Positions 18,358-35,434 of a stretch of DNA of 64,000 nt are shown piece by piece. The stretch is from an uncultured Planctomycetia bacterium. GTDB lineage: Bacteria > Omnitrophota > Gorgyraeia > 2-01-FULL-45-10 > JAHFGN01. The translations under genes and the position numbers were made by a program. The notes under the pieces are model-generated. The model worked only from the letters and a program-made list of their open reading frames with translations, did not search any database and was not told the DNA's origin. The stretch lies in the NCBI GenBank assembly GCA_964354545.1, contig CAYHAE010000001.1, positions 364 to 64,363 of the forward strand, given 5' to 3'. Numbering within the stretch: the stretch's first letter is position 1; each line of letters begins with the position of its first letter.

Positions 18358-20124
18358 ATGAACGAGAAAATCCTTGAACTGCTACGACATGTTCAAAAGC
18401 CGGGGAGATATATCGGCGAAGAGCATAATGCGGTAAGGAAAGACTGGGCCGGGCCCTATCTTCGCGTCCTCCTGGCTTTTCCCGACATATACGAGGTGGG
18501 GATGAGCTATCTCGGTATGAGGATCCTCTATGGGCTTTTGAATGAGAGGAGCGATGTCCTCTGCGAGAGGGTATTTTCACCGTGGCCCGATATGGAGAAG
18601 CAGTTGAGGGATAACGGGCTTTCGCTTTTCAGCCTCGAATCGAAGAGGCCGATCCGGGAATTTGGGATCATCGGATTCAGTCTCGCGTATGAACTGAATT
18701 ATACCAACGTCCTGAACATCTTGGACCTGGGGCGCATCCCCATGAGATCGCTGGATAGGAGCGATGAGGACCCCCTCGTGATAGCAGGGGGTCCCTCGTG
18801 TTATAATCCGGAGCCGATGGCGGATTTCATCGATGCATTTGTAATAGGAGACGGAGAGGAAGCGATCATCGATGTCGTGGAGGCGTGCAAAGATTTTTTT
18901 GATGACGGGCTGAAGAAGATACGCAACAGGGGAGCGCTCCTGAGGAAGCTCGCGACCTTGGAAGGGGTTTACGTACCGCGCCTCTACGACGTTGGCTACA
19001 ACGGTGACGGGACGGTCCGCGTGTTCACGCCCCTCGAAGGAGCGCCGCCGAAGGTCAGAAAGAGGGCCGTGAAGGATTTAGACGCCGCCTACTATCCTGT
19101 CTCGCAGGTCGTGCCCTACATACAGATCGTACACGACAGGATCATGCTGGAGATAATGCGCGGGTGCGCCCACCTGTGCAAGTTCTGCGAGGCAGGCGCG
19201 ACGTGCCTGCCCAGGCGGGAGCGGTCCACGGAGAAGATCGTTGAGCTTGCCATGAGCGCTTACCGCAACACGGGGTACGAAGAGGTATCTCTCATTTCGC
19301 TCTCGAGCGGCGATCATTCCAGGATACGGGAGATATGCAGGGCCCTCCATGATATCTTCAAGGACAAGGGGGTATCGATCTCCATGCCGTCTCTCAGGAT
19401 CGAGGTGATGACCGAAGAGCTTCCCCAGCTCATTCGCGAGGTGAGAAAGGCAGGCATTACCCTCGCGCCGGAATCCGGAAGCGAGCGGCTGCGAAACGCG
19501 ATCGGAAAGACGATCGCCATTGAGAAATTGTCCTCGACGGTCCTCGAGGCGTACAGATTGGGTTGGGACAGGATCAAGCTCTACTTCATGATAGGACTTC
19601 CGACGGAACGCGACGAGGACCTGCTCTCGACGGTTGACCTCATGGACGAACTGTCGGACGCGCGCAGGGCCCTCGGGAAGGGCCCCGGCCAGATCATCGC
19701 TTCCATCGCGCCCTTCGTGCCAAAGCCGCACACGCCCTTTCAATGGTGGGCGATGGAACCGCAGGCGTCGCTCGATGCGCGGCAGGCTTTTTTGAGAACG
19801 CACGTCCTCCACAGGAGCCGGAACCGGAAGAAGGTGAAGCTGGACTTTCACGATCTCGAGAAGAGCATCCTGGAAGGGGTTTTTTCCAGGGGTGACAGGA
19901 GACTCGGACGGGTGATCGAGAACGCGTACGAATGCGGTGCGCGGCTCGACAGTTGGGGAGAGTTCTTCGAGATCGGCCTGTGGCGCAGGGCGTTTGAGGC
20001 GTGCGGCCTGAACCCTGAATTCTACGTCAATAGGGCGCGGCCATACGAAGAGCTGCTGCCGTGGGATTTTATCGATGTGGGCATTCCAAAGGAAGTTCTT
20101 TTGAAGCGGGCTCAGGAGCAGTGA
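18358..20124 (+). CDS. Radical SAM protein of the TIGR03960 type, with an N-terminal B12-binding-like domain.
   Basis: Radical SAM core with the CAHLCKFCEAG cluster motif (CxxxCxxC). The length and N-terminus (PDIYEVGMSYLGMRILY) match the conserved family that normally partners DUF2344. Confidence 0.85.
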   Translation: MNEKILELLRHVQKPGRYIGEEHNAVRKDWAGPYLRVLLAFPDIYEVGMSYLGMRILYGLLNERSDVLCERVFSPWPDMEKQLRDNGLSLFSLESKRPIREFGIIGFSLAYELNYTNVLNILDLGRIPMRSLDRSDEDPLVIAGGPSCYNPEPMADFIDAFVIGDGEEAIIDVVEACKDFFDDGLKKIRNRGALLRKLATLEGVYVPRLYDVGYNGDGTVRVFTPLEGAPPKVRKRAVKDLDAAYYPVSQVVPYIQIVHDRIMLEIMRGCAHLCKFCEAGATCLPRRERSTEKIVELAMSAYRNTGYEEVSLISLSSGDHSRIREICRALHDIFKDKGVSISMPSLRIEVMTEELPQLIREVRKAGITLAPESGSERLRNAIGKTIAIEKLSSTVLEAYRLGWDRIKLYFMIGLPTERDEDLLSTVDLMDELSDARRALGKGPGQIIASIAPFVPKPHTPFQWWAMEPQASLDARQAFLRTHVLHRSRNRKKVKLDFHDLEKSILEGVFSRGDRRLGRVIENAYECGARLDSWGEFFEIGLWRRAFEACGLNPEFYVNRARPYEELLPWDFIDVGIPKEVLLKRAQEQ

Positions 20125-20193
20125 TCGCCTTATGTAATGATTTGCACCTAATAACGATATAAGATATATGCAATTTCGTTCGTTCAGCGTATT

Positions 20194-20494
20194 TTAGTGA
20201 ATGGTGAATAGTGAATAGGCCACCTTATCCGCCTTCGCAGAAGACCACGGATGTCAACCCGTGGATGAATGCGACCAGATGCTTCGGCGGTCGCCACCAA
20301 GGCTTCGGCGACCGTCCGCCGACGATTCAGTGGCGGACGGATGTCACACCTGACGTGCAGGCGGATACCCCCACCGCCTAGATTTACGAAGTAAATCTGG
20401 TGGGGGTAAAGAAAGGGACCACGGGCGTAAGCCCGTGGGGTTCCATTGGCCATATCGCAAAATTATTCACTAATAACCATTCACTATTCACTAA
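20194..20494. repeat. About 300-bp element with imperfect terminal inverted repeats (left TTAGTGAATGGTGAATAGTGAATAGGCCA, right TGGCCATATCGC...CCATTCACTATTCACTAA). The interior is a string of GC-rich hairpins.
   Basis: The ends are mutual reverse complements. Internal stems include CCACGG/CCGTGG, GTCGCC/GGCGAC, CGTCCGCC/GGCGGACG, CCCCCACC/GGTGGGGG and a GTAA tetraloop hairpin CACGGGC-GTAA-GCCCGTG. Confidence 0.5.
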
Positions 20495-20524
20495 TAATCA
20501 AGGATAGCCAAATTCCAAGCTTGT

Positions 20525-20554
20525 TTGACAAATGCATGTATCTTGAGGTATACT
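20525..20554 (+). promoter_or_regulatory. Sigma-70-type promoter of the GGDEF gene. Layout: TTGACA, 18-nt spacer, TATACT.
   Basis: It sits about 40 nt upstream of the RBS (GGGAGGAG) and the ATG at 20595. It shares the block TTGACAAATG...GGTATACTT with the pilin promoter at 28519. Confidence 0.45.
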
Positions 20555-20594
20555 TAATATGTTTACAGCGGATAACGAGTACGGGAGGAGATGG

Positions 20595-22010
20595 ATGAAG
20601 GCCATTTTTAAGAGACGCTCGACCACCCCCGACGGTTTTGGATATAAATTATTGCTCGCGTTCGGCCTTATGTCGGTGATACCCCTCCTGGTCGCCGTCT
20701 ACCTTGCTATCAACTACGTATTTCCCCAATTGAACACTCTTGTCGATATAAGCGTGGTGCTCAGTCTCTCCGCCCTCATTGCGTTTCTCGGATTTATCTT
20801 TGCACGGAAGGTCATCAAGCCGGTAGTCGATATGGCGGTCATGGCGCGGACGATCGCGAGCGGTCACTACGAAAAACAGATCCACATTTCCGGCAACGAC
20901 GAGATCGCGCAATTGGGTGAATCGATAAATGCGATCACGGCGAAGGTGCGGCTCAACATCGAGGAGATGAAGAGCTACAGCCACAAGGCGCAGGAGCTCA
21001 ACGTGGAGATACACAGGAGGATGGTGGTCCTCGCGGGCCTCCTCCAGGTGAGTGACGTGATATTGAGCAGCACCATGGAATTCAAGGATATCCTCGACCT
21101 GCTTGTCTCGAAGGTCTCCCAGGCGTACGATACGGGGTTCGCGGTATTATTTCTATCGAAGGACTCGCCCGAGCTCTTCTATCCTGTCGCACTCTGCAAT
21201 GCGGAGCACGAAGGGTTCGACAAGATCGTCATACGCGAGGGGAAGGGTTTTCTGGGGAAGCTGCTCTTCTCGAGGTCTATCTTAGTGATCGACTCCACTA
21301 TGCGGGAGACGAAGGAGATTGAGGAGTTCAAGAGGGCGCACCATGTGAAAAACCTCGTTGTATTTCCGATATTCTCCGGGAAGGATACGTTCGGGATACT
21401 CTTCGCCGGCAACCGGCTCGATAATTACAAGTTCTCCTCCGATGAATTCGATATCGTGAAGATCTTCGCGAAGCAGATCGCGATCGCCGTTGAGAATAAT
21501 ATCCTCGTGAGAAAGACGAAGGAGCTCGCCCTGAAAGACGACCTCACGAACCTCTTCAACAGGAATTACATATTCCCGAGGCTCGATGAGGAGATCAAGA
21601 GGGCGCTCTTCTTTCAAAGGCCGTGCTCATTCTTAATGATCAACGTGGACGAGTACAGGAAGTTCAGGGATGACTGTGGAGAGATAGCCTCCGAGGAAGC
21701 GCTCAAGAAGATCGCCGACATCCTGAAGGGCTATGTCGAACCGTTCGGGAAAGCGGCAAGGATCGCGGGTGACGAATTTGCGCTCCTCCTGCCGGAAAAG
21801 AATAAGCGGCAGTCGCTGGAGATCGCCGAAGCGATACGGAGGAAGATCGAATCGTCGAGCTTCGCCGAATCTCAAACCAAGCCCTTGACCGTGAGCATAG
21901 GCGTGAGCGAAAACCCGATAGACGGGTCGACGCAGGAAGATATCGCAAAGAGCGCTGCGGCGTTTCTTGCGCACGCAAAAGCGCAGGGCAAGAACAGGGT
22001 CGTTGGTTGA
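20595..22010 (+). CDS. Membrane sensor diguanylate cyclase with HAMP, GAF and GGDEF domains. The active-site motif is AGDEF.
   Basis: Two TM segments, a HAMP domain, a GAF domain and a GGDEF domain (RIAGDEFALLLPE). I chose the MKAIF start with its strong RBS. Confidence 0.85.
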   Translation: MKAIFKRRSTTPDGFGYKLLLAFGLMSVIPLLVAVYLAINYVFPQLNTLVDISVVLSLSALIAFLGFIFARKVIKPVVDMAVMARTIASGHYEKQIHISGNDEIAQLGESINAITAKVRLNIEEMKSYSHKAQELNVEIHRRMVVLAGLLQVSDVILSSTMEFKDILDLLVSKVSQAYDTGFAVLFLSKDSPELFYPVALCNAEHEGFDKIVIREGKGFLGKLLFSRSILVIDSTMRETKEIEEFKRAHHVKNLVVFPIFSGKDTFGILFAGNRLDNYKFSSDEFDIVKIFAKQIAIAVENNILVRKTKELALKDDLTNLFNRNYIFPRLDEEIKRALFFQRPCSFLMINVDEYRKFRDDCGEIASEEALKKIADILKGYVEPFGKAARIAGDEFALLLPEKNKRQSLEIAEAIRRKIESSSFAESQTKPLTVSIGVSENPIDGSTQEDIAKSAAAFLAHAKAQGKNRVVG

Positions 22011-22088
22011 GGAGACCCCCGTGCGCGACGTCGCGGGAGGATAGAGCGCGGACAGGAGCTGGTCGAGCACGTTTTTTATGGAGGATAG

Positions 22089-23153
22089 ATGGCCCACGAC
22101 ATTCAGCGTCTTTTACTGCTCATGAATGAGAGAAATGCGTCTGACCTGCACATCTCCGCGAACGCGACCGTGCAGCTGAGGCTCGACGAGAAGCTCGTTC
22201 CCGTTGATGACCATGTCCTCACTCCGGAAGAGGCGAAAACCCTCACGTACAGCATACTGAATAAGGAGCAGATCGCGAAGTTCGAGAAAGACCTGGAGCT
22301 TGACCTCTCCTTGAGCGTGACGGACTTGAGCAGGTTCAGGGTAAACGTCTTTAAACAGCGGGGAGACGTAGGGTGCGCGATCAGGCTCATACCGTTCAGG
22401 ATAAGGAACTTCGAGGAATGCGGCCTGCCCGTGGACGTCGTGACGAGCCTGTGCAAGAAACCGAAGGGGCTGGTCCTGGTCACCGGCGCGACAGGAAGCG
22501 GTAAATCGACGACGCTCTCCGCGATGATAGATTGGATAAATTCAGAGCGGTACTGTCACATCATCACCATCGAGGACCCGATAGAGTTCGTCCATACCCA
22601 CAAGAAGGCGCTCATTGAGCAGCGTGAGGTCTATAGCGATACGCACTCATTCGGGGAGTCCCTCAAGCACGTCCTGAGGCAGGATCCTGACGTCATCCTC
22701 ATCGGTGAGATGCGCGATCTGGAGACGATAGAGTCGGCCCTCATCATCGCAGAGACCGGCCACCTCGTATTTGCGACACTCCACACATCTGATTGCGTCC
22801 AGACGATGAATAGGATCATAGACGTCTTCCCGGCGTACCAGCAGCAGCAGATCCGGACGCAGCTCTCCTTCGTCCTCGTAGGGATCCTGTCCCAACAGCT
22901 CATCCCGCGGCTCAAAGGGACGGGCAGGGTCCTCGCGACCGAGGTCTTGGTGGTGACACCTGCGGTGCGCAGCCTCGTCCGCGAGGCAAAGATACACCAG
23001 CTCTACTCCGTCATCCAGACGTCGCAGAAAGACGGCATGAAGACAATGAACCAGGCGCTCTTCGAGCTCTATCAGAAGAAGCTCATATCGTACGAAGATG
23101 CGTTCGCGCGCTCGACCGATACCGAAGATCTGAACAGGGTCTTCAATCGGTGA
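22089..23153 (+). CDS. pilT: Type IV pilus retraction ATPase PilT.
   Basis: Walker A GATGSGKSTT, an Asp box and a His box. The 354-aa length is PilT-like and lacks the long N-terminal domain of PilB. Confidence 0.9.
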   Translation: MAHDIQRLLLLMNERNASDLHISANATVQLRLDEKLVPVDDHVLTPEEAKTLTYSILNKEQIAKFEKDLELDLSLSVTDLSRFRVNVFKQRGDVGCAIRLIPFRIRNFEECGLPVDVVTSLCKKPKGLVLVTGATGSGKSTTLSAMIDWINSERYCHIITIEDPIEFVHTHKKALIEQREVYSDTHSFGESLKHVLRQDPDVILIGEMRDLETIESALIIAETGHLVFATLHTSDCVQTMNRIIDVFPAYQQQQIRTQLSFVLVGILSQQLIPRLKGTGRVLATEVLVVTPAVRSLVREAKIHQLYSVIQTSQKDGMKTMNQALFELYQKKLISYEDAFARSTDTEDLNRVFNR

Positions 23154-23181
23154 TCGTCTCGACCGCGGTCACGGGTACCCT

Positions 23182-23640
23182 ATGGCAGCGATTCGAAGGA
23201 TTGTTTCAAAACAATTAGGCGAGCTCCTCCTCGAGAGGAGGCTGATCGATCAATCCCAGCTCGAGTCGGCCCTCAAGCTGCAGAAAGAGAAGGGTGGGCT
23301 CATCGGTCAGATACTCGTCATGCTCGGGTACGTGAAAGAGGAGGATATTGCCCAGGCCATCACCGTCCAGTATGGTTTTCCCTTTCTCTCCCTGGAGAAT
23401 TACGAGATCAACCAGGAAGCACTACAGCTTATACCCGCGAGCGTGGCCCTCCAATACAACATCATACCCGTGGACAAGATAGGGAATATGCTTACGGTCG
23501 CGATGTCGAATCCGCTCAACCTGCAGGCGGTCGAGGACGTGGAGATGATCACCAAATGCCAGGTGCAGGTGTTCGTGAGCACCCTGACCGCCGTCACCGA
23601 AGCAATAAAGAAATATTATGGAGTTATCCCTAAGAGATAG
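23182..23640 (+). CDS. Standalone GspE-N (T2SSE_N / MshEN-like) domain protein.
   Basis: Only 152 aa. The N-terminus QLGELLLERRLIDQSQLESALKLQ matches the MshEN-type LGxxLLxx(x)LIxxxxLxxALxxQ helix pair. The rest matches the GspE-N fold (IPVDKIGNMLTVAMSNPLN). There is no ATPase domain. Confidence 0.7.
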   Translation: MAAIRRIVSKQLGELLLERRLIDQSQLESALKLQKEKGGLIGQILVMLGYVKEEDIAQAITVQYGFPFLSLENYEINQEALQLIPASVALQYNIIPVDKIGNMLTVAMSNPLNLQAVEDVEMITKCQVQVFVSTLTAVTEAIKKYYGVIPKR

Positions 23641-25354
23641 GCTTACCAAGATACTGATAGACGCGAAGCTCATCACCTACGAAGACCTCCTCAAGGCCAT
23701 CACGGTTCAAAAAGATCGCGGGGGAACGCTGGGCGAAACGCTTGTCAATCTCGGGCACATCTCTAAAGACCAGCTCATGCTCGCCATAAGCCAGGGCCTC
23801 GGGATACCCCCGATAAACCTCTCCCGCTATAAGGTAGATCCGAATATCCTAAGGCTGATACCGCCGAAGATCGCCAAGCACTACCAGATCATACCGCTCT
23901 CCAAGATAGGGAACACCCTCACGGTCGTCATGTCTGACCCGCTCAATATATTCGCGATCGACGGCATAAAGGCATTCACGGGCCTGAAGATATCCCCCCT
24001 CATCACTACCGAGCAGGACATAAAGGACGCCATCGCGCAATACTATGAGGAGGATGCGTCTTTGGTCATGGATAAGATCGTCGACGACCTGGGAGGGGGC
24101 GGCGAGATCACGGTGGTCGAAGAGAAGGGCGCTGCCGAAGGAGAGACGTCCACGGAATTGCTCAAGATGACGCAGGATGCGCCCGTAGTGAAATTTACAA
24201 ACGCCATACTCGCGGAAGGCGTTGACGTAAAGGCGAGCGACATCCTTGTGGAGCCTCTCGAGGACCAGATGAGGGTACGGTACAGGGTCGACGGCATTCT
24301 GCATGAAGGAAAGCACGCCCCAAAGGTGATGCACAAAGGCATTGTGTCGAGGCTCAAGGTAATGTCTGAGCTCAACATCGCCGAGCGCAGGCTGCCGCAA
24401 GACGGGCGGTTCAAGATACGCCTCCACAATCGGGAGATCGATTTCAGGATCTCCGTGCTCCCTTCGAAAGAAGGGGAGAAGGTGGCGCTCCGGATACTGG
24501 ATAAAGCGCAGGCGAAGCTCAACATAGAGGACCTCGGTTTTGATGAACATTCGGTCACGGAGATGAAGAAGGCCGCCGCCAAACCCCACGGCATGATACT
24601 CGTCGCCGGCCCGACAGGGTGCGGAAAGACGACGACCCTCTACTCTATCTTAAAGCATGTCGATTCACCCACGCTCAACCTCGTGACAGTGGAGGACCCT
24701 GTCGAGTACCTGTTGGATGGCATCAACCAGGTCACCGCGCGGCCCGACCTCGGTCTGACGTTCGCATCTGCGCTGAGGTCTATCTTGCGGCAGGACCCCG
24801 ACGTCGTGATGATAGGCGAGATAAGGGATTTTGAGACGGTCGATATCGCGATCAAGTCTGCGCTCACAGGGCATCTCGTGTTGAGCACGCTCCATACGAC
24901 GACCGCGCCCGGTTCGGTGATCCGCCTTGTGGATATGGGGGTCGAACCCTTTCTCCTCACGTCCTCCCTCATCCTGGTCGTGGCGCAGCGGTTGGTGAGG
25001 AAAATCTGTATGGTGTGCAAAGAACCGGTGAAATTAGACGACGCGATCGCGGAAAAGCTCAGGCTTGACGCGAATGAGGTGAAGGGCACGTTGTACCGGG
25101 GGAGGGGCTGCGACACGTGTTTAAAGACGGGCTATAAAGGCCGCGTGGGCATTGTGGAGGTGCTGTCCCTTACGCCAAAGGTAAAAGAGCTCATCCTCAA
25201 GGGTGTCCAGGAGTATGAGATACGGGATGAGGCGAGGAAAGAAGGGATGCTGAGCCTGCGCGAGAACGGGATAAAGAAGGTGTTAGAAGGGGCCACGACG
25301 CTTGACGAGGTCTTCCGTGTCACCGTGGGGAACCAGGATCTGGAGCTGAAATAA
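23618..25354 (+). CDS. pilB: Type IV pilus assembly ATPase PilB (GspE family), paralog 1.
   Basis: Tandem GspE-N domains at the N-terminus, Walker A GPTGCGKTTT and the tetracysteine motif CMVCK...CDTC. Confidence 0.9.
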   Translation: MELSLRDRLTKILIDAKLITYEDLLKAITVQKDRGGTLGETLVNLGHISKDQLMLAISQGLGIPPINLSRYKVDPNILRLIPPKIAKHYQIIPLSKIGNTLTVVMSDPLNIFAIDGIKAFTGLKISPLITTEQDIKDAIAQYYEEDASLVMDKIVDDLGGGGEITVVEEKGAAEGETSTELLKMTQDAPVVKFTNAILAEGVDVKASDILVEPLEDQMRVRYRVDGILHEGKHAPKVMHKGIVSRLKVMSELNIAERRLPQDGRFKIRLHNREIDFRISVLPSKEGEKVALRILDKAQAKLNIEDLGFDEHSVTEMKKAAAKPHGMILVAGPTGCGKTTTLYSILKHVDSPTLNLVTVEDPVEYLLDGINQVTARPDLGLTFASALRSILRQDPDVVMIGEIRDFETVDIAIKSALTGHLVLSTLHTTTAPGSVIRLVDMGVEPFLLTSSLILVVAQRLVRKICMVCKEPVKLDDAIAEKLRLDANEVKGTLYRGRGCDTCLKTGYKGRVGIVEVLSLTPKVKELILKGVQEYEIRDEARKEGMLSLRENGIKKVLEGATTLDEVFRVTVGNQDLELK

Positions 25355-27063
25355 TGGAGGCCCTCAAGGATAGGATCCTCAGGGTGCTCATCGATACGCA
25401 ACGCGTGAAGCCGAGCGAGCTCAAGAGGGTCCTCGAAAAGCAGAAGGACAGCCGGACGAGCATGAGCAAGGTCCTGGTCCAGGAGGGTCTCATCTCAGAG
25501 AAGGACCTCATGCTGATCTTGAGCCAGGAACTGAACATCCCTCCCATAAGCCTTTCGAAATATAAGATCGACCAGGCCACCGTACGCCTCATTCCGGAAA
25601 AGATCGCCCGTCAGTTCTTTCTCATTCCGCTTTCGAAGATCGGAAAGGTGCTCACCGTTGCAATGTCCGACCCGCTCAACATCATCGCCATCGACGAGGT
25701 GAAGCTGCTCACGAACTATAAGATAGACCTCGTCATCGCAACAGAGAACGACATCAAAGAGGCGCTCGATGCCTACTATGGTACCGCGACCCTCGAGACA
25801 CAGGAGGCGCTGGATACGCGCGCTGTCGGCGAGGAGCTCGAGATCGTTGAGGGAGAGGAGTTCGATGTCGACAGCATCTCCCAAGAGAGCCAGAAGGCTC
25901 CCATCGTGAAGATGGTGGACGTGATCTTGAACGATGCGCTGAGGAGGCGTTCGAGCGACATACACATTGAGTCGTGCGAGAAGATGCTGCGGATACGGTA
26001 CAGGATCGACGGAGACCTTCAGGAGGTCTTTAAACTCCCGAAGAAGAACCAGAATGCCATCATCGCACGATTTAAGATCATGTCCAAGCTCGACATCACG
26101 GAGACGCGTCTCCCGCAGGACGGGAGGTTCAGGATAAACTTCGAAGGGAAGGAGATAGACTTCAGGGTCTCGGTGCTTCCCATTGCGTTCGGGCCGAAGA
26201 TCGTCTTGAGGGCGCTCGATAAATCGAACTTGAGCGTGGGGCTCGACAAGCTCGGCTTCCTTCCGTATTCCCTCAATGTCTTCAAGGAGGCGCTCAAGCG
26301 TCCGTACGGCATGATACTCGTCACAGGGCCGACGGGGAGCGGGAAGTCGACCACCCTGTATTCCATCATCAATCAACTCAACACGCCCGAGAGGAATATC
26401 GTGACGCTCGAGGAGCCTGTGGAGTACGAGTTGCAGGGCATCACGCAGGTCGAGGTGAGGTCGGATATCGGCCTCACCTTTGCGAACGGGCTCCGGTCCA
26501 TCTTGCGGCAGAGCCCCGATGTGATCATGGTCGGAGAGATCAGGGATTTCGAGACGGCGGATATCGCGATAAAGGCCTCGCTCACAGGGCAGCTCATCCT
26601 GAGCACGCTCCACACGAACGACTCGGTCGGAGCTATTACGAGGCTCGTCGATATGAAGGTGGAACCATTTCTGTTATCATCGAGCCTCATCATGGCATGC
26701 GCCCAGAGGCTCCTCAGGAGGACCTGCCCCCATTGCAGGGCCGAGGTGGACGTGCCCAAAGGTGTCTTGGAGGAATTCGGCATCGATCCGCTTGACGAGC
26801 ACAAGAAGAAGAGGGTCTTCTATGAGGGGAAAGGGTGCGAGAAGTGCAACAGCTCCGGTTACTATGGAAGGTCCGGGATACTTGAGGCGTTCCTCATCGA
26901 TGACACGATGCGCGATATGATCATCAGGAGGGCATCGAGCGACGAACTGAAGGCGCATGCCATGAAAAAAGGGATGAGGACGCTGAGGCAAGAAGCGCTG
27001 GAAAATTTCGTCAACGGTGTCACGACCCTGGAAGAGGTCTTGAGGGTGACCGCGGAGGGGTAA
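25354..27063 (+). CDS. Second GspE-family assembly ATPase (PilB paralog 2).
   Basis: Same architecture as paralog 1: Walker A GPTGSGKSTT and CPHCR...CEKC. Its start overlaps the paralog-1 stop in a TAATG arrangement. Confidence 0.85.
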   Translation: MEALKDRILRVLIDTQRVKPSELKRVLEKQKDSRTSMSKVLVQEGLISEKDLMLILSQELNIPPISLSKYKIDQATVRLIPEKIARQFFLIPLSKIGKVLTVAMSDPLNIIAIDEVKLLTNYKIDLVIATENDIKEALDAYYGTATLETQEALDTRAVGEELEIVEGEEFDVDSISQESQKAPIVKMVDVILNDALRRRSSDIHIESCEKMLRIRYRIDGDLQEVFKLPKKNQNAIIARFKIMSKLDITETRLPQDGRFRINFEGKEIDFRVSVLPIAFGPKIVLRALDKSNLSVGLDKLGFLPYSLNVFKEALKRPYGMILVTGPTGSGKSTTLYSIINQLNTPERNIVTLEEPVEYELQGITQVEVRSDIGLTFANGLRSILRQSPDVIMVGEIRDFETADIAIKASLTGQLILSTLHTNDSVGAITRLVDMKVEPFLLSSSLIMACAQRLLRRTCPHCRAEVDVPKGVLEEFGIDPLDEHKKKRVFYEGKGCEKCNSSGYYGRSGILEAFLIDDTMRDMIIRRASSDELKAHAMKKGMRTLRQEALENFVNGVTTLEEVLRVTAEG

Positions 27064-27119
27064 AGGAGCAAGAGGGGACCGTGAGTCCCTTGAGCGCGAC
27101 ACGGAGCGGAGGACGTGCC

Positions 27120-28648: not shown

Positions 28649-28984
28649 ATGGTCAGAAGACATAAAAAGGGATTCACGCTTGTTGAAATCATGATAGTCG
28701 TCGCAATTATAGGTCTATTGGCTGCCATCGCTATCCCGAACTTTGTGAGGGCGAGAGAGACGGCAGAAAGAAATGCGTGTATCGCAAACCTGAAGCAGAT
28801 ACAGGGTGCAGTTCAGGTGTGGGCGATCGACACGAGTGCGGGGTCCACTTCAACGCCAACCGCGACATCAGATCTCGCGAACTACATAAAGACATGGCCG
28901 AAGTGCAAAACAACTACGTATGCGATACCCGCAGTCAGTGCAAACCCCGCGTGTCCAACCACCGGCACTGGACACAACCTCTAA
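28649..28984 (+). CDS. Type IV pilin (prepilin N-terminal cleavage/methylation domain), copy 1.
   Basis: Class III signal MVRRHKKG|FTLVEIMIVVAIIGLLAAIAIP with a Cys pair in the C-terminal region. An RBS (AGGAGG) precedes it. Confidence 0.85.
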   Translation: MVRRHKKGFTLVEIMIVVAIIGLLAAIAIPNFVRARETAERNACIANLKQIQGAVQVWAIDTSAGSTSTPTATSDLANYIKTWPKCKTTTYAIPAVSANPACPTTGTGHNL

Positions 28985-29019
28985 TCTTAAGGGGTAATCC
29001 ATTTTTCGTGCGAGGTGCG

Positions 29020-29057
29020 AAAAGGACGGCTATCGTATTATTGCCGTCCTTTTTGCT
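29020..29057 (+). terminator. Rho-independent terminator after pilin copy 1.
   Basis: AAGGACGGC-loop-GCCGTCCTT followed by TTTTT. Confidence 0.6.
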
Positions 29058-29180
29058 TTGGGTATTTCGAAAATTATTTAATTATTATCAGAGCACAACA
29101 GCTGTAAATGAAAGGGGGTGAGGACCGGCCTAAAGACTTTTTTTATCGGACCCATTTTTGGGAAAAAGGAGGGATGAGAC

Positions 29181-29516
29181 ATGGTCAGAAGACATAAAAA
29201 GGGATTCACGCTTGTTGAAATCATGATAGTCGTCGCAATTATAGGTCTATTGGCTGCCATCGCTATCCCGAACTTTGTGAGGGCGAGAGAGACGGCAGAA
29301 AGAAATGCGTGTATCGCAAACCTGAAGCAGATACAGGGTGCAGTTCAGGTGTGGGCGATCGACACGAGTGCGGGGTCCACTTCAACGCCAACCGCGACAT
29401 CAGATCTCGCGAACTACATAAAGTCATGGCCGAAGTGCAAAACAACGACGTATGCGATACCCGCAGTCAGTGCAAACCCCACGTGTCCAACCACCGGCAC
29501 TGGACACAACCTTTAA
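29181..29516 (+). CDS. Type IV pilin, copy 2.
   Basis: The protein differs from copy 1 at 2 of 111 residues (T to S and A to T). The upstream leader and RBS are also duplicated. Confidence 0.85.
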   Translation: MVRRHKKGFTLVEIMIVVAIIGLLAAIAIPNFVRARETAERNACIANLKQIQGAVQVWAIDTSAGSTSTPTATSDLANYIKSWPKCKTTTYAIPAVSANPTCPTTGTGHNL

Positions 29517-29518
29517 TC

Positions 29519-29715: not shown

Positions 29716-29749
29716 TTAAGGGGTAATCCATTTTTCGTGCGAGGTGCGG

Positions 29750-29790
29750 AAAGGACGGCTATCATATTATTGCCGCCCTTTTCTTTTTAG
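29750..29790 (+). terminator. Terminator after pilin copy 2 (slightly degraded duplicate of the copy-1 terminator).
   Basis: AAAGGACGGC-loop-GCCGCCCTTTTCTTTTT. Confidence 0.5.
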
Positions 29791-29905
29791 GACAGCGCGA
29801 TAAACGTTTTTCATAATGCAATCGTGATATCGGGGCCACGTATCTGTTGAAGAGTAAGGCGCTTTTTGACTTCACCCGATCCTAGGAGGGAAGGGGGGAT
29901 GAGAC

Positions 29906-30241
29906 ATGGTCAGAAGACATAAAAAGGGATTCACGCTTGTTGAAGTCATGATAGTCGTTGCAATCATAGGTCTATTGGCTGCCATCGCCATCCCCAACTT
30001 TGTAAGGGCGAGAGAGACGGCAGAAAAGAGCGCGTGTATATCAAACCTGAAGCAGATACAGGGTGCGGTCGAAATGTGGGTACTCGATACGAGCGCGGCA
30101 TCTTCGTCAACGGCGTCTGGAACATCAGACCTTGTGAATTACATAAAGGTATGGCCAAAGTGTAAGGCGAGCACATATGCGATACCTGCGGCAGACGGAA
30201 CGCCCGTGTGTCCGAACAGCATAGGCGGACACAACCTCTAA
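29906..30241 (+). CDS. Type IV pilin, divergent third paralog.
   Basis: Same N-terminal domain as copies 1 and 2. The variable C-terminal half is divergent but the Cys pair is conserved. Confidence 0.85.
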   Translation: MVRRHKKGFTLVEVMIVVAIIGLLAAIAIPNFVRARETAEKSACISNLKQIQGAVEMWVLDTSAASSSTASGTSDLVNYIKVWPKCKASTYAIPAADGTPVCPNSIGGHNL

Positions 30242-30275
30242 ACCTACAGCGGGGATCCTTTTCACTTTGGGTACC

Positions 30276-30313
30276 TTGACAATCTCCGATATTTATGATA
30301 GATTTGATATAAT
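30276..30313 (+). promoter_or_regulatory. Promoter candidates downstream of pilin 3. Layout: TTGACA, 17-nt spacer, TAGATT, then an extended -10 TGATATAAT.
   Basis: Consensus-like hexamers at 30276-30281 and 30299-30313 in an AT-rich patch. Confidence 0.45.
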
Positions 30314-30424
30314 ATTATAATATTAGGTATGTACCCTTTATGAGATGGTTTGACTAATTGGAGGAAGATGCGGTTTAGAAGGCAAGGTATCATTTTGACC
30401 GGATGCCTGTTTATAACGGTATGT

Positions 30425-30463
30425 AAAGCACCCTTCTCATTTGTGCGCGGGGTGCTTTTTTCA
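30425..30463 (+). terminator. Intrinsic terminator between that promoter and pilM.
   Basis: AAGCACCC-loop-GGGTGCTT followed by TTTTTC. Confidence 0.55.
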
Positions 30464-30555
30464 TGTCTCGTCCGGCGCGTATGTATGAGCCCTGCGCCTC
30501 ATTTCGATACTTTTAACCCAGAAGACCTGCCTTACGCTCTACCGAGAGGGATAAT

Positions 30556-31563
30556 ATGCCGAAAGCAAGGGTAGAGAAAAAACTGGGTATCGATATCGGA
30601 AGCTACGCCATAAAGTTGGTCGAACTTCACTTGTCCAAGGATGAGAACAGGGTCGCCAGCATTGGAATTAAAAGGATCGAGAACAGCTCCCCGGAAGCCC
30701 TAGCAGGAAAGGTGAGGGAGCTCTGCGAGGAATCAAAAGTGAAGACGAGGGACGTGAGCCTGTCTGTCTCCGGCCCGCAGGTTATCACGCGGCTCATTAC
30801 AATGCCGACAATGTCCGACTCGGAAATGAAGAATGCGCTCGTGTTCGAAGTCGAGAAGACCATCCCCTTTAGTCCCGAAGAGGTTATCTACGATTACCAG
30901 GTGCTCGAGCGAGGGAAAGAGAAGAAGATGGACGTCCTGCTCACGGCGGTCAAGAGAGATTACGTGCAAAAGTACATCCAGATCGCCCAGTCGAGCGACC
31001 TGAGCCTTCGCGTCGTGGACGTGGACTCCCTTGCGCTCGCAAATGCGTTCGTGAAAAACTCCGAAGGCTCCCTCGACCAGAATAAGACGGTCGCGCTTCT
31101 CAATATCGGCGACAGATATACGAACCTCGACATATTGCGCGGAGGGGTCTTGAGCTTCTCCAGGGATATACAGATAGGAGGGCGCGATGTCAATGAGTCC
31201 ATTGCGCGGATACTGAACGTCGACAGCAAGGGCGCGGAAAAGCTGAAGTTCGACCCCAAGGAGCGCGCGGACGAAATAGGCCTTCCCATTAGAATGGTGT
31301 TGGCCAATCTGGCTGACGAGCTGAGGCTGTCATTTGGGTATTTCGAGAATAGATTCGGGAGGAACGTCGATGACCTGTATCTCTCCGGAGGGTCATGCGG
31401 CCTGCTCGGCGTGACCGAATACCTCGAGGAGAACCTTGGGCTCAAGGCGAAGGTGTGGGACCCCCTCAAGGCGTTTAGCATAGATCAGGAAAACGTAGGA
31501 AAAGCACTCTCGAACGAGATGAGGCGCAGCCTCGCGGTGAGCGTGGGGCTTGCCCTGAGATAA
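30556..31563 (+). CDS. pilM: Type IV pilus assembly protein PilM (actin-like).
   Basis: The N-terminus LGIDIGSYAIKLVEL has the actin/HSP70 fold. It is followed by pilN, pilO, pilP and pilQ. Confidence 0.85.
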   Translation: MPKARVEKKLGIDIGSYAIKLVELHLSKDENRVASIGIKRIENSSPEALAGKVRELCEESKVKTRDVSLSVSGPQVITRLITMPTMSDSEMKNALVFEVEKTIPFSPEEVIYDYQVLERGKEKKMDVLLTAVKRDYVQKYIQIAQSSDLSLRVVDVDSLALANAFVKNSEGSLDQNKTVALLNIGDRYTNLDILRGGVLSFSRDIQIGGRDVNESIARILNVDSKGAEKLKFDPKERADEIGLPIRMVLANLADELRLSFGYFENRFGRNVDDLYLSGGSCGLLGVTEYLEENLGLKAKVWDPLKAFSIDQENVGKALSNEMRRSLAVSVGLALR

Positions 31564-31566
31564 CGT

Positions 31567-32289
31567 ATGAACCTAGAGATCAACCTTCTACCGAAAGAGT
31601 TAAGGCCGCGCAAGAAGATACAGCTCCCGCCGATTGCGTTAAAGATCTTCGGCATCTCCAACGTCCGGCCGATCGTCTTGGTGGCGTGGCTCATCGCGAT
31701 CCTTTTTACGCTGCAGATGCTGTTCTCTGCGCTTCAGGTGGTCCAGAGGTCACGCCTCGGCGCCTTGCAGAACAGGTTCTCGAAGCTCAGCCGCGAGAAG
31801 GGCGAGGTGGACGCGATAAAAAAGCAGATCGCGAGCATCACCCAAAAGGTCGCCTCTGTCGGCGAAGGGATACAAAGGCCCTTCAGCCTCGCCGAGAAGC
31901 TCAACGCGATAAGCGATGCCGTCGTGTCGGGGATGTGGCTGACGCAGCTCGCATACGACGAGAAGACTGCCGAGGTGGAGGTTGCGCCGAGCACAGCGGG
32001 CGGGGCAGGCATGAAAAGAGCGCCCGGCGCCAAGGCGGCGCCCGCTAAGCCAACCATAAAACGAGTGACCACGCGGACACTCTCTCTTTCAGGCTATGTC
32101 TACAGCGCGGGCGAGGACTCGACCGCATACCTCAATAGATTTATCGACAACCTGAAAAAGAACGAGGGCTTTTATTTTGATTTCAACAATATAGCGGTGG
32201 TGGAGAACAGGGTCGAGTTTCTCCAATTGGAGAAAGGGGAAGGGCAGGAAGTCACCGCGTTCAGTATCGTCTGCCAGTTCAGGCAATAA
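31567..32289 (+). CDS. pilN: PilN-like bitopic pilus assembly protein.
   Basis: N-terminal INLLPKE motif, a single TM segment and a coiled coil. At 240 aa it is longer than usual. Confidence 0.75.
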   Translation: MNLEINLLPKELRPRKKIQLPPIALKIFGISNVRPIVLVAWLIAILFTLQMLFSALQVVQRSRLGALQNRFSKLSREKGEVDAIKKQIASITQKVASVGEGIQRPFSLAEKLNAISDAVVSGMWLTQLAYDEKTAEVEVAPSTAGGAGMKRAPGAKAAPAKPTIKRVTTRTLSLSGYVYSAGEDSTAYLNRFIDNLKKNEGFYFDFNNIAVVENRVEFLQLEKGEGQEVTAFSIVCQFRQ

Positions 32290-32334
32290 CAGGGCAGGCG
32301 CTGTCCGTCATACGAAAGGCGCAGTCCCGCCCTT

Positions 32335-33012
32335 TTGGGATGCAGGGTTAATACATTATCCAAAAGGGTGGGACGTCCTGCAAGAGGCTATAGAGCAAAG
32401 GACAGCACATCGGTGAACATACCGTTTCTTGAAGAACTTCTGAAAGATAACGAAAAGAGGGCGATCCTCGTGCTCGCGGTCCTCGCTGCGGTGCTCATCG
32501 CGTATCTTTTGTTCGTAGCGGTACCCCAATTGAGAGACCTGATACTCGTGTCGAGCGAGTTCGTCACGCTGGAAAAGGAGATGCGCTCCACCGAACAAGA
32601 GATACAGAAGACGGCATATTACCAGAAGACGTTGAATGAATTGAAAGAAAAGTTTTCTCAATATCAGACGTACCTTTTGGGGCACGAGGGAGAAATACCG
32701 GTTCTCATGGAGAAGGTCTCTCGCATGGCGCGGGAATCGGGAGTGAAGATATTGGGTATCAAACCCGTGAACGTACAGGAAGGGCCTGCGGAGGCGAGGG
32801 GAGCGCTTTGCAGGGAGATCTCGATACTTACGGTCGCGCGGTCGGGATATCATGAGCTCGGCACATTCGTGAACCACATTGAGAGCGCGGATATTTTTTT
32901 GAGGGTTGCGGACCTCAGGTTAAGGTTCAATAAGACTTCCCCTAAGAAACACGACGTGAGCCTCTCGATCGTTTCCTATTTGTTCATGGGGGGAAAGGGT
33001 GGTCTTGAGTAA
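32335..33012 (+). CDS. pilO: PilO-like pilus assembly protein.
   Basis: TM segment followed by a coiled coil and the periplasmic PilO fold, in the conserved position. The start is uncertain. An in-frame GTG near 32412 with an upstream AAGGA is possible. Confidence 0.65.
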   Translation: MGCRVNTLSKRVGRPARGYRAKDSTSVNIPFLEELLKDNEKRAILVLAVLAAVLIAYLLFVAVPQLRDLILVSSEFVTLEKEMRSTEQEIQKTAYYQKTLNELKEKFSQYQTYLLGHEGEIPVLMEKVSRMARESGVKILGIKPVNVQEGPAEARGALCREISILTVARSGYHELGTFVNHIESADIFLRVADLRLRFNKTSPKKHDVSLSIVSYLFMGGKGGLE

Positions 33013-33370
33013 GATCATTGCCGCAGGGTGCGTAGTCCTTCTCGTGGTATGTGTTGCGTATGGAGATGCGCGTGGAGAGGGTACCTTTGCGTACAATTCG
33101 AAGGGGAAGAGAGATCCGTTCATGCCCTTGTTAGGGCATGAACGTCAGGCGGGATCTCCGGAAGACATATCCACGATCGACGATGTGAAGTTGGAAGGCA
33201 TAGCGGTACAGTCGGAAGGTAAGCGGATCGCGATCATAAACGGTATCGTCGCGAAAGAGGGAGACAAGATCGGCGCCCTGCAGGTGAATAAGATTTCGCC
33301 GAAGAAAGTACAGGTCGTCATAGACGGACGTGACTATGAATTGGCCCTGGCAGAGAAAGAGGCTAGGTAG
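32999..33370 (+). CDS. pilP: PilP-like lipoprotein-type pilus assembly protein.
   Basis: RDPFMP motif and a C-terminal beta domain (GIAVQSEGKRIAIINGIVAKEGDKIG). Confidence 0.7.
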   Translation: MVLSKIIAAGCVVLLVVCVAYGDARGEGTFAYNSKGKRDPFMPLLGHERQAGSPEDISTIDDVKLEGIAVQSEGKRIAIINGIVAKEGDKIGALQVNKISPKKVQVVIDGRDYELALAEKEAR

Positions 33371-33383
33371 GAGGTGGAATGCG

Positions 33384-35129
33384 GTGAATAGAAAAAATTT
33401 CGTCAAGTACATCGTGGCAATCTGTCTTGTATGTTCGATGTCGAGCCTATCGGCACAGGAGGCGGCCGTTAAAGAGCAGAGGAAGGCCGAACCTCCGGGT
33501 CAGCCGGTCGAGGGCTCGAAGCTAGGCGTTGCGCCGTCTCAGCCTGGCGGCCCGGCGAGCGCAGCGGGTACAGCGGGCACGGCGAGCACGACAGCCATCC
33601 AGGACACGGGTCAGGCGGGCGAAGCGGGCGAGGAACCGAAAGAGGAGGTAGCCCCGCTTGAACCCGGGAATATCACGGTAAATTTCAAAGGTGCCGACAT
33701 GAGGACGGTATTGAACTATATCGCAGAGGTCGCGGGGATCGATATAGTTCCGGCTCCTGACGTGAAGGGGCCCGTGGACGTACGACTCACCAATAAGCCC
33801 TGGAAGGTAGCGCTCGATATAATCCTGAGGAATTACGGATACGCGTACGAAGAGACCAGCGGCATCATACGCGTTGACACCATCTCTCGGTTGAGAGAGC
33901 AGGAGCCCATCACCCAGACCTATAGCCTCGATTACGCAAGCGCAAAAACGATCGCGGGCGGAATGAAAGACGACAAGAACCTCCCCATCCCGGGCGCGAT
34001 AAAGGACATCCTGAGCGAGAAGGGGAAGATCGCTTTTGACGATAGGACGAACATACTGGTGGTGACCGACGTCCCCTCGAAGATCGATAAGATAAATCAG
34101 GTCATTAAAGACCTCGACGCCGAGACGCCGCAGGTGTTGATCGAGGCCAAGGTCATCGAGACGCAGCTCGAGAAGAACGAGACGATGGGGATCGATTGGA
34201 CCATAAGCGCAACCGTGGCGGGAGCCCAAAGGCCGACGACGATACCTTTCTTAAGCTGGCAAAATCCGCTCGCGCCGCTTGGCGTGAAATTTGACGAGAA
34301 GACGTGGCTGCCTCAGGGAGGTCCCGCCGCCAACTCTGCGAGCACGACACTCCTCTTTCCATCGGGCCCCAGAGACGGCTCTTTTGGATTTCCCTACGCG
34401 TTGCCGGCGGACTTTACGTATGGGACGCTCGACTTTACCTCATTCCAGGCCGTGTTGCAGATGCTGAAGAACAGGACCCGGACAGAGGTCATCTCTGATC
34501 CAAGGGTGGCGACTCTCAACAATAAGCCGGCGTACATAAACGTCGGTGAGACGTTCAACTTTCCGCTGTATGAGCGGAATATGGCGACAGGCAGGATGGA
34601 GATCATCGGATATAGAGCGGAAGACCACGGCATAAAATTGAACGTCACGCCGCACATCAATACGAAAAACGAGATCTGGGTCGAGCTGGCGCCCGAGATA
34701 AGCGAGTTCAAGCGATACGATACGCTCGATGCGGCAAGCGGGATCAAGGCGCCCGTCTTCTCAAAGAGAAAGGCGACGACCCAGGTGCTGGTCAGGGACG
34801 GCGATACGATATTCATCGGAGGCATCATCAAGGAGAACAACACATTCTTTAAGAGCAAGATGCCTATCCTCGGGGACCTCTTCGGAGACATTCCCTACAT
34901 AGGCGGTCTCTTTTCGCAAAAGGCTGACGTCGTGACAAAGGTGGAGCTCATCTTCTTCATAACAGTTCGCGTGTTGGCGCATGACAAAACGCTCAAGGGG
35001 GTGCCGGACAACGCGAGAGCGTATTCGCCTACCTTTTCACTCTATGAGAACTATCACGATCAGGATAGACAAAAGGATAAGAATAATAATAATAAGAATA
35101 ACAATAAGAAGAAGAAAAGGCAAAAATAG
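33384..35129 (+). CDS. pilQ: Type IV pilus secretin PilQ.
   Basis: Signal peptide, N0/secretin-N domains (ILVVTDVPSKIDKINQVIKDLD) and a C-terminal secretin domain (VLVRDGDTIFIGGII...PILGDLFGDIPYIGGLF). I chose a GTG start with AGGAGGTGG upstream. The protein ends in a K/N-rich tail. Confidence 0.85.
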   Translation: MNRKNFVKYIVAICLVCSMSSLSAQEAAVKEQRKAEPPGQPVEGSKLGVAPSQPGGPASAAGTAGTASTTAIQDTGQAGEAGEEPKEEVAPLEPGNITVNFKGADMRTVLNYIAEVAGIDIVPAPDVKGPVDVRLTNKPWKVALDIILRNYGYAYEETSGIIRVDTISRLREQEPITQTYSLDYASAKTIAGGMKDDKNLPIPGAIKDILSEKGKIAFDDRTNILVVTDVPSKIDKINQVIKDLDAETPQVLIEAKVIETQLEKNETMGIDWTISATVAGAQRPTTIPFLSWQNPLAPLGVKFDEKTWLPQGGPAANSASTTLLFPSGPRDGSFGFPYALPADFTYGTLDFTSFQAVLQMLKNRTRTEVISDPRVATLNNKPAYINVGETFNFPLYERNMATGRMEIIGYRAEDHGIKLNVTPHINTKNEIWVELAPEISEFKRYDTLDAASGIKAPVFSKRKATTQVLVRDGDTIFIGGIIKENNTFFKSKMPILGDLFGDIPYIGGLFSQKADVVTKVELIFFITVRVLAHDKTLKGVPDNARAYSPTFSLYENYHDQDRQKDKNNNNKNNNKKKKRQK

Positions 35130-35131
35130 GA

Positions 35132-35434
35132 GTGGGTAGAAGGCTCGGGGCGACGTTCTCGAAAAAAGGCGCGATGGTCTTTATCTCCCACCTCGATCTC
35201 ATGAGATTGTTTGCGCGCGCATCGAGGAGGGCCGGGCTACCTGTAAGTCTCACCAAGGGCTACAATCCCCATCCGAGGATAAGCATCACAAAGGCGCTCA
35301 AGCTTGGAGTCGAGAGCGATTCGCTCGAAGTTGTTTTTTATCTGGATTCAGAGATCGACGCCGCTGAATTCAGGAAGAGGATGAACGCGGAGCTGCCGGG
35401 CGGGGTGGAGATCAAAGATGTCGTCGAATCGTGA
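35132..35434 (+). CDS. DUF2344 (TIGR03936, radical-SAM-linked) protein. It is short: 100 aa against a usual length of about 220.
   Basis: GTG start. The sequence RLGATFSKKGAMVFISHLDLMRLFARASRRAGLPV...GYNPHPRIS is the family N-terminus. The ORF terminates at 35434. Confidence 0.65.
   Translation: MGRRLGATFSKKGAMVFISHLDLMRLFARASRRAGLPVSLTKGYNPHPRISITKALKLGVESDSLEVVFYLDSEIDAAEFRKRMNAELPGGVEIKDVVES

Follow-up and report, generated by a model that had tools for sequence, protein, structure and literature searches.

Separation of a radical SAM gene from a half-size DUF2344 partner by a type IV pilus block as a probable old gene order of the Omnitrophota

How did a 15-kb block of type IV pilus and cyclic di-GMP (c-di-GMP) genes come to lie between two genes that are neighbors in most other bacteria? 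This question is raised by a stretch of 64,000 nucleotides (nt) from contig CAYHAE010000001.1 of assembly GCA_964354545.1, an uncultured member of the Omnitrophota; the whole stretch is referred to here as the window. The two genes encode a B12-binding-type radical S-adenosylmethionine (SAM) protein of the family TIGR03960 and a protein of the family TIGR03936/DUF2344, which is only 100 amino acids (aa) long in the window. They are 15,007 nt apart. The initial annotation took the pilus block to have been acquired or relocated into this site, next to a shortened DUF2344 gene. Comparison with other genomes gives a different answer: the split is very probably an old conserved gene order of the Omnitrophota, and the half-length partner is the normal, selected form of the protein in this lineage rather than the outcome of a recent damaging insertion. 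Four genes frame the split:

16811-17908, + strand: rodA, FtsW/RodA/SpoVE family (PF01098, E value [E] 1.5e-101)
18358-20124, + strand: TIGR03960 B12-binding-type radical SAM protein, 588 aa (701.5 bits against a cut-off of 462.3; profile positions 2-577 of 605)
35132-35434, + strand: half-size TIGR03936/DUF2344 protein, 100 aa, predicted single TruA-like lobe (TIGR03936, 123.3 bits against a cut-off of 71.9)
35586-37094, + strand: rng, RNase G/E family (TIGR00757, E 1.8e-150)

These assignments are based on the open reading frame (ORF) listing, which shows a long run of co-oriented genes on the + strand, and on Pfam and NCBIfam searches of the window proteins. The order of radical SAM gene, 15-kb wedge of pilus and c-di-GMP genes, 100-aa DUF2344, rng, and rplU is present where the initial annotation had placed it. 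The radical SAM protein contains PF19864 (Radical_SAM_N2; E 2.2e-61) and PF04055 (Radical_SAM; E 1.3e-18) and is a member of TIGR03960. The DUF2344 ORF starts with GTG, 2 nt past the pilQ stop codon, and reaches 120.3 bits with PF10105 (cut-off, 23.8). By score it belongs to the family, and it covers only positions 4 to 96 of the 209 of TIGR03936, less than half the normal length, as had been recognized. In an outgroup profile of 227 positions, built from 69 full-length proteins of 205 to 248 aa, it covers positions 6 to 99. The two-lobed architecture of the full-length proteins (∼210 to 250 aa) is lacking, which makes the window protein a half-size subfamily member.

The arrangement of the pair in other phyla was determined by scanning species-representative genomes with an alignment of radical SAM homologs; ORFs were called in the 80 resulting loci and compared with the window proteins. 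A full-length DUF2344 gene (205 to 270 aa) lies directly 3' of the radical SAM gene in 64 of the 74 non-Omnitrophota loci, and 6 more encode a fusion of both (824 to 902 aa), which confirms the premise of the initial annotation that the pair is normally adjacent or fused. Two loci end at a contig edge, leaving 70 of 72 informative loci with an adjacent or fused pair; the pair is apart only in Brocadiaceae L054 and Scalindua L059, which both belong to anammox Planctomycetota. Represented among the loci are many Bacillota lineages, Geobacteraceae/Desulfuromonadales, Desulfobacteraceae, Sumerlaeota, Ignavibacteria, and others. The unit usually continues with rng-rplU-obg, often with rodA on its 5' side, and the window retains both of its ends, rodA-radical SAM and DUF2344-rng. 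Because the pair is adjacent or fused in nearly all informative outgroup loci, the split arrangement appears to be derived and adjacency or fusion ancestral.

Within the Omnitrophota, the 5' side of the split is widely shared. Among the homologs of the radical SAM protein, the 120 best are all unfused (552 to 630 aa), and those with names belong to Candidatus Omnitrophota or Omnitrophica. Two related loci (L008 and L009) and the P0104 contig, with 56 to 69% radical SAM identity, show the same order as the window, ileS-dksA-lspA-lgt-rluD-aroA-mreBCD-pbp2-rodA-radical SAM-GGDEF-pilT-MshEN-pilB-pilB-pilC-pilins. L008 and L005 overlap on contig JBGGHK010000003.1 (assembly GCA_041643025.1), where the radical SAM gene and a 101-aa DUF2344 are 15.5 kb apart. 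Eight of nine related Omnitrophota loci carry GGDEF and/or pilT-MshEN-pilB-pilB-pilC 3' of the radical SAM gene, and in none of the nine does DUF2344 follow it directly. The HAMP-GAF-GGDEF gene of the window has counterparts 3' of radical SAM in L008, L009, L010, L017, L022, and the P0104 contig, and rodA lies upstream in L008, L009, L017, L022, L026, L039, and L049 as well as in many outgroup loci. The relatives with this shared split order have radical SAM identities of only 44 to 71%.

The 3' side of the split shows the same constancy. A metagenome scan with an alignment of the short form yielded 80 further loci, from which short forms with sufficient contig room were counted. pilQ is found directly 5' of the short DUF2344 in 51 of 57 loci with upstream room, rng directly 3' in 64 of 66 loci with downstream room, and both flank it in 49 contigs. 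The radical SAM gene stands directly 5' of the short form in 0 of the 57 loci; long forms from the same scan do have it there. An identical overlap of 23 nt between the DUF2344 stop and the rng start recurs in 28 loci, and most others show a gap of <10 nt. Three assemblies share the order pilMNOPQ-short DUF2344-rng-rplU-obg-proB-proA-nadD. The standard order in the lineage would accordingly combine ileS...rodA-radical SAM, GGDEF-pilT-MshEN-pilB-pilB-pilC-pilins-pilMNOPQ, and DUF2344-rng-rplU-rpmA-obg-proB-proA-nadD. In an ancestor of the sampled Omnitrophota, other genes would have separated DUF2344, which was kept at rng, from the radical SAM gene.

The shortness of DUF2344 is likewise a property of the lineage. 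The best 101 homologs of the window protein are all 84 to 142 aa long, mostly ∼101 aa. A large library holds 8309 representatives of the family, and among the best 150 of these most have 200 to 250 aa, with the short form in the minority. In an alignment of 61 short sequences, 15 columns are invariant and 17 nearly invariant, including SHLDLMRLFxRAxRRA; the retained N-terminal lobe holds the most conserved motif of the family, SHLDLxRxxxRAxRRA. A neighbor-joining (NJ) tree of N-terminal regions (103 columns, no bootstrap) places 101 of the 110 short sequences in one clade without long members. For 374 pairs of short genes, the ratio of nonsynonymous to synonymous substitution rates (dN/dS) reaches 0.27 at most, with a median of 0.10. 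As judged from these alignments, the short DUF2344 appears to be a monophyletic subfamily under purifying selection, and in the Omnitrophota the protein would have lost its C-terminal lobe, leaving a single lobe of 100 residues.

The missing half was also searched for directly. The window differs from the loci with overlapping or closely spaced genes by a DUF2344-rng spacer of 151 nt (35435-35585), in which neither a remnant of the C-terminal half nor an ORF was found. A profile of the C-terminal half gave no match in six frames of the window and 11 Omnitrophota loci (best E 0.38), and it matched 70 outgroup ORFs. The C-terminal half does not appear to have been relocated within the sequence searched.

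The second protein of the pair is shortened as well. Beyond the position where the window radical SAM protein ends, the outgroup proteins show a C-terminal extension with a median of 30 residues, compared to 1.5 in the Omnitrophota. This extension holds a Cys-rich motif, for example, EDCRNGNCTACGVCDF in Geobacteraceae and DCRxxCxGCG...C in Clostridia. The window protein ends with ...KEVLLKRAQEQ before the motif and is without the last ∼28 profile positions (T..DCR..C..CG.C). Scored with a relaxed pattern, the Cys-rich motif (C-x2-5-C-x2-C...) occurs in 69 of the 74 outgroup proteins and in each of the 120 fused proteins of the Desulfuromonadales, whereas none of 8 Omnitrophota loci and none of the 119 top homologs that could be scored has it. 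The remainder of the protein is well conserved in the lineage, with a mean column identity of 68% over 20 sequences. The radical SAM protein of the Omnitrophota would thus have lost a Cys-rich tail of ∼30 residues, a loss fixed in the lineage. A metal or iron-sulfur site is a reasonable guess for the tail. The new content of this work is modest and consists of the half-size TruA-like DUF2344 subfamily, the tail loss in the same lineage, and the constant link between DUF2344 and rng.

The placement next to pilQ and the shortening of DUF2344 can be told apart with the help of a metagenome contig, L170. It encodes the closest full-length relative of the window DUF2344 (P0224; 207 aa), which shows 57% identity over the N-terminal lobe and has a clear C-terminal lobe. 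The gene order is hpf-ptsN-HPr-pilMNOPQ-DUF2344-rng-rplU-rpmA-obg. Since its rng and DUF2344 products are most similar to those of Brocadiaceae L054 (51% and 45%), the source of L170 is probably planctomycete-like and not a member of the Omnitrophota. Adjacency to pilQ and shortening appear to be separable, because pilMNOPQ here stands directly 5' of a full-length DUF2344. L054 itself (2000-8600) shows the radical SAM gene and a full-length 205-aa DUF2344 6.6 kb apart, with folK, an lptF/G gene, a nitrilase-type gene, a comF-like gene, hpf, ptsN, and ptsP between them. In the wider group, the pair was pulled apart either more than once or early. DUF2344 stays with rng wherever the radical SAM gene is separated, in the Omnitrophota, L054, and L170. 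L054 and L170 (1-10000) also share part of the separating housekeeping genes (comF-like, hpf, ptsN, HPr or ptsP).

The AlphaFold2 (AF2) model of the short DUF2344 protein is confident, with a predicted local distance difference test (pLDDT) value of 88.7, and shows a compact β-α-α-β-β-α-β unit. Fold searches match this unit with TruA, Pus1, and Pus3 over ∼106 columns, the best match being 1dj0_A (E 7e-4; template modeling [TM] score, 0.75; root-mean-square deviation, 2.4 Å). A profile search of PDB sequences gave a weak match only, to residues 142 to 174 of yeast Pus1 (E 0.04). The model of a fused Geobacteraceae protein (pLDDT, 82) contains the same unit followed by a second α/β lobe; its DUF2344 part matches whole TruA or Pus3 over 240 to 280 columns and its radical SAM part matches MgmA, TsrM, MiaB, and MtaB. 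These models suggest that the window DUF2344 corresponds to a single lobe of the TruA-like fold. In agreement with this, DUF2344 belongs to the pseudouridine-synthase clan of Pfam, the domain of which is described as two dissimilar moieties that arose by tandem duplication (PMC7955657). In sequence, the N- and C-terminal halves of full-length DUF2344 showed no detectable similarity (hhalign probability, 0.7%), and the Pfam family PseudoU_synth gave no match in the window DUF2344 at an E of ≤0.001.

The likeness to TruA, Pus1, and Pus3 is one of fold only, concerning one lobe in the short form and the whole enzyme in the fused form. These enzymes differ by an identity of just 12 to 16%, two lobes, and a catalytic Asp, and no pseudouridine-synthase activity is implied here. 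With full-length DUF2344, the window protein shares the N-terminal motif and the position directly 5' of rng; the full-length proteins differ in having 205 to 248 aa, two lobes, and a place beside the radical SAM gene, whereas the window form has 100 aa and the N-terminal lobe only and is not adjacent. The window radical SAM protein resembles other TIGR03960 proteins in its domains and its position after rodA but differs in the missing tail and in the c-di-GMP/pilus genes on its 3' side. MiaB and MtaB modify RNA and have a distinct domain for binding it. Among solved structures, the folds of these methylthiotransferases and of the B12-type methylases MgmA and TsrM come closest to the radical SAM part of the fused protein, but the MiaB/MtaB and methylase models of NCBIfam score far below their cut-offs on the window protein, and the RNA-binding module of the present pair would be TruA-like and not TRAM.

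Because full-length DUF2344 is TruA/Pus1-like and the radical SAM protein is similar to B12-type methylases and MiaB/MtaB, the two most likely form an RNA-directed system in which DUF2344 would be the RNA-binding or positioning module. The constant presence of rng and the genes for L21, L27, and Obg nearby points to a role in the maturation of ribosomes or RNA. The half-size DUF2344 probably keeps an RNA-directed role as a single lobe or a homodimer and would be coproduced with RNase G, possibly on a transcript from the pilus promoter. The hexamers of the promoter match at 20525-20554 are also readable by eye in the closest relative (L171), and no strong terminator-like site was found between pilQ, DUF2344, and rng. 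Cotranscription of DUF2344-rng with the pilus genes is possible at the level of these consensus matches. Tentatively, the Omnitrophota may possess a naturally minimized radical SAM system: a tail-less enzyme and a single-lobe partner that may restore the two-lobed fold by dimerizing and is made together with RNase G, perhaps from a transcript with its start at the c-di-GMP-linked pilus operon. If such a minimized system works, the pair would represent a minimal functional core tied to RNase G-dependent RNA maturation. TIGR03960/TIGR03936 is a very widespread pair, for which the TruA-like fold, the constancy of rng, and the existence of a one-lobe, tail-less lineage narrow the hypotheses towards RNA modification or maturation; the same features point to the conserved core of the pair.

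A number of points weigh against the explanation preferred here. The Cys-rich tail is modeled with a pLDDT of <50 in the fused protein, which leaves its role a guess. The losses of the tail and of the C-terminal lobe do not appear to be strictly linked, because in Defluviitaleaceae L083 the gene for a radical SAM protein without the tail stands immediately 5' of one for a DUF2344 of full length (227 aa). The full 15-kb arrangement is not universal in Omnitrophota contigs, since L101 carries sugar-nucleotide enzymes and a pilin 5' of the short DUF2344 and L001 and L003 are without pilB and pilC within 10 kb of it. The clade of short forms comes from an NJ tree of few columns and no bootstrap, and the catalytic Asp of the pseudouridine synthases could not be mapped onto DUF2344. 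A literature search for DUF2344, TIGR03936, and TIGR03960 returned no functional study, and the mentions of DUF2344 give no function. Apart from these points, the radical SAM protein of Defluviitaleaceae L063 is tail-less like that of L083.

In a different reading of the function, the half-size DUF2344 serves RNase G instead, for example, as an adaptor that binds RNA, with the tail-less radical SAM protein acting alone or with another partner. The faithful association with rng in the Omnitrophota, L054, and L170, the 23-nt overlap with rng in most short forms (28 loci), and the loss of parts from both proteins in the lineage (C-terminal lobe and Cys-rich tail) agree with such a change of role. 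It is nevertheless less likely than a retained partnership, from which sequence data do not set it apart: the radical SAM protein is retained and well conserved, fusions elsewhere show physical cooperation of both proteins, and the lobe that was kept is the one with the most conserved motif of the family.

The split could also be ancestral, with adjacency and fusion arising later elsewhere and no insertion ever having taken place in the Omnitrophota line. Two more lineages of the Planctomycetes-Verrucomicrobia-Chlamydiae (PVC) type, L054 and L059, have the pair apart, and L170 has pilMNOPQ before DUF2344, as this history would predict. Its probability is low, as adjacency followed by rng-rplU-obg, often with rodA 5', is common to Bacillota, Desulfuromonadales, Desulfobacteraceae, Sumerlaeota, and Ignavibacteria, and the Omnitrophota keep both ends of the unit, for which genes placed inside an older unit are the simplest explanation.

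The proposal of the initial annotation, when read as a recent acquisition or move of the pilus/c-di-GMP block between the partners with DUF2344 clipped as a side effect, leads to the block itself. Together with the genes 3' of rng, its features are as follows:

20190-20505, no strand assigned: lineage-specific structured element of ∼300 nt (inverted repeats, RNA fold z-score)
20525-20554, + strand: sigma-70-like promoter match TTGACA-N18-TATACT (11 of 12 consensus positions; consensus match only)
20559-22010, + strand: HAMP-GAF-GGDEF diguanylate cyclase-type protein (PF00990, E 2.4e-30; PF01590; PF00672)
22089-23153, + strand: pilT-type retraction ATPase, 354 aa (PF00437, E 3.3e-45); position kept in relatives
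23182-23640, + strand: stand-alone MshEN-domain protein, 152 aa (PF05157, E 1.8e-21; NF053729 c-di-GMP motif, E 1.3e-16)
23618-25354 and 25354-27063, + strand: two tandem PilB-like ATPases with MshEN N-terminal domains (PF00437, E near 2e-133, and PF05157 in each)
27081-28334, + strand: pilC platform protein (PF00482, two domains, E 3.2e-64)
28649-28984, 29181-29516, and 29906-30241, + strand: three tandem pilin genes of exactly 111 aa each (PF07963 methylation motif, E 2e-10 to 6e-10)
30556-35129, + strand: pilM, pilN, pilO, pilP-like gene, and pilQ secretin (PilM_2, E 2.7e-53; PilO, E 1.3e-9)
37223-37252: promoter-like site before rplU (near-consensus match)
37368-37697, + strand: rplU, L21 (PF00829)
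37707-38003, + strand: rpmA, L27 (PF01016)
38061-39035, + strand: obg (PF01018 with PF01926)

A recent insertion is suggested at first sight by the 70 of 72 informative outgroup loci in which the partners are neighbors or fused, by the start of DUF2344 2 nt past the pilQ stop, and by the left edge of the block, where the element with inverted ends is located. It is very improbable all the same. The arrangement is shared by relatives with only 44 to 71% radical SAM identity, the gene preceding the short DUF2344 is pilQ in 51 of 57 loci, and the short forms group in a single clade (dN/dS, 0.10). L170 combines pilMNOPQ with an immediately following DUF2344 of full length. A short DUF2344 is normal in this lineage, so the supposed clipping by an insertion is not borne out either. 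Both kinds of evidence that the initial annotation had named as arguing against a recent insertion, from the arrangement in relatives and from the frequency of short forms, were thus obtained. What stands of the proposal is that the arrangement is derived; its recency and the truncation as its result do not. As the recent insertion fails, the 15-kb block should not be treated as an island nor DUF2344 as a damaged gene.

The composition of the block, which the initial annotation had put forward as a check, gives no foreign signature in GC content at third codon positions (GC3), codon choice, or GC skew. GC3 is 0.68 in the block genes compared to 0.70 in the rest of the window, and neither GC3 nor the synonymous-codon likelihood differs between the two (p = 0.32-0.97). 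Total GC is slightly lower in the block (0.54 versus 0.57), chiefly from the pilin genes, which form its lowest-GC stretch (0.495-0.50). GC skew is positive throughout the region and fluctuates no more than elsewhere in the window. The block ORFs scanned contain no integrase or transposase domains, and a single inverted repeat, which extends over 300 nt, is located at one edge without bracketing the block. Foreign composition, flanking repeats or an integrase, and patchy presence, by which mobile elements and genomic islands are recognized, are not seen, the block occurring in every relative studied, and nothing indicates a recent mobile insertion, with the exception of the separate 300-nt element at 20190-20505.

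This element with inverted ends, which the initial annotation had correctly seen, has arms at 20194-20218 and 20464-20500 that consist of arrays of the heptamer GTGAATA in inverted orientation. Its core is made up of GC-rich hairpins, with two UUCG tetraloops and one GUAA tetraloop on the + strand. The fold is far more stable than that of shuffled sequence (z = -10.9 for the + strand and -9.1 for the - strand). The spacer between the radical SAM and GGDEF genes measures 434 nt in the window versus 53 to 205 nt in relatives, and the closest relative (L171; 71% identity) is without the element. Being ∼300 nt long, missing from block-bearing relatives, and not bracketing the pilus block, it is a small, separate, lineage-specific insertion. 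As to its nature, a repeat resembling a miniature inverted-repeat transposable element (MITE) and a structured RNA both come into question. Rfam gave no match in the whole window at gathering thresholds or in 20050-20650 at an E of ≤1, and no second copy was found in the window, 171 loci, or plasmids. A pattern scan of viral contigs gave two matches, of which L173 (IMGVR_UViG_3300027896_005848) shares a 36-nt hairpin and flanks, not the whole element. At 5560-5660 of L173, two neighboring hairpins resemble the window element, and the first shares the flanks (GCAGAAGACCACGG..GT.A.CCCGTGG.TGAATGC). A T-run 3' of the second recalls an intrinsic terminator, and a related short hairpin module may exist elsewhere.

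That the 100-aa ORF is a decaying, functionless pseudogene remnant, as its coverage of less than half of the family profile and the absent C-terminal half might suggest, has next to no probability in view of the length of ∼101 aa kept across >100 clusters, the 15 invariant and 17 nearly invariant columns, the median dN/dS of 0.10, the confident compact AF2 model (pLDDT, 88.7), and the 23-nt rng overlap kept in 28 loci.

For annotation, the old conserved order preferred here means that the 100-aa DUF2344 of the Omnitrophota is a real, selected gene that should not be flagged as a fragment. The fixed c-di-GMP-controlled pilus cluster within a string of housekeeping genes is a marker of the lineage, and its fixed position suggests that the pilus genes belong to the core genome of these bacteria. 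By Pfam, the type IVa pilus set of the window is complete, with PilB, PilT, PilC, methylation-motif pilins, PilM, PilN (a weak match; E 0.0037), PilO, and PilQ. The pilP-like ORF of 123 aa shows a weak match to T2SSB, and PilQ reaches 242.8 bits with TIGR02515, below the cut-off of 284.35. The first PilB copy, the sole copy scanned against NCBIfam, reaches 636 bits with TIGR02538, just below the cut-off of 675.65. Like other type IVa pilus clusters with MshEN-mediated c-di-GMP control, the block has the full gene set, with MshEN domains with the c-di-GMP motif on both PilB proteins and on a stand-alone protein and with GGDEF at the head. Features of this lineage are, in contrast, the duplicated PilB, the gene for MshEN alone, and the location between radical SAM and DUF2344-rng. 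The MshEN-only position is occupied by a gene for 144 to 206 aa in every Omnitrophota locus that reaches that far, adjoining the two MshEN-bearing PilB paralogs. A literature search on Omnitrophota and type IV pili found nothing on this gene order.

Some smaller observations concern the surroundings. The MshEN-only gene and the 5' end of the first pilB have 23 nt in common. In L039 (11790-14020), an apparent response regulator with an HD-GYP domain (motifs recognized by eye) replaces GGDEF 3' of the radical SAM gene and is followed by an ORF of 382 aa. PilQ ends in a low-complexity Asn/Lys tail (DQDRQKDKNNNNKNNNKKKKRQK; 35060-35126), just 5' of the DUF2344 start. In the comparisons, named homologs and common gene order place the window in the candidate phylum Omnitrophota. 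A Bacillota origin, which the rodA...rng-rplU order might suggest, was rejected because the gene 3' of rplU in the window is rpmA and not that of the Prp protease and because the close homologs are without exception from the Omnitrophota. Between rodA and the radical SAM gene lies a spacer of ∼450 nt (17909-18357), in which Rfam gave no match; it measures ∼470 nt in L008 (9533-10000), and in L009 it holds a MazG-domain gene and an ORF of 89 aa. Finally, the representative library contains a protein of 1727 aa (P0222) in which 15 separate stretches match the 100-aa DUF2344 lobe, forming a repeated-lobe array.

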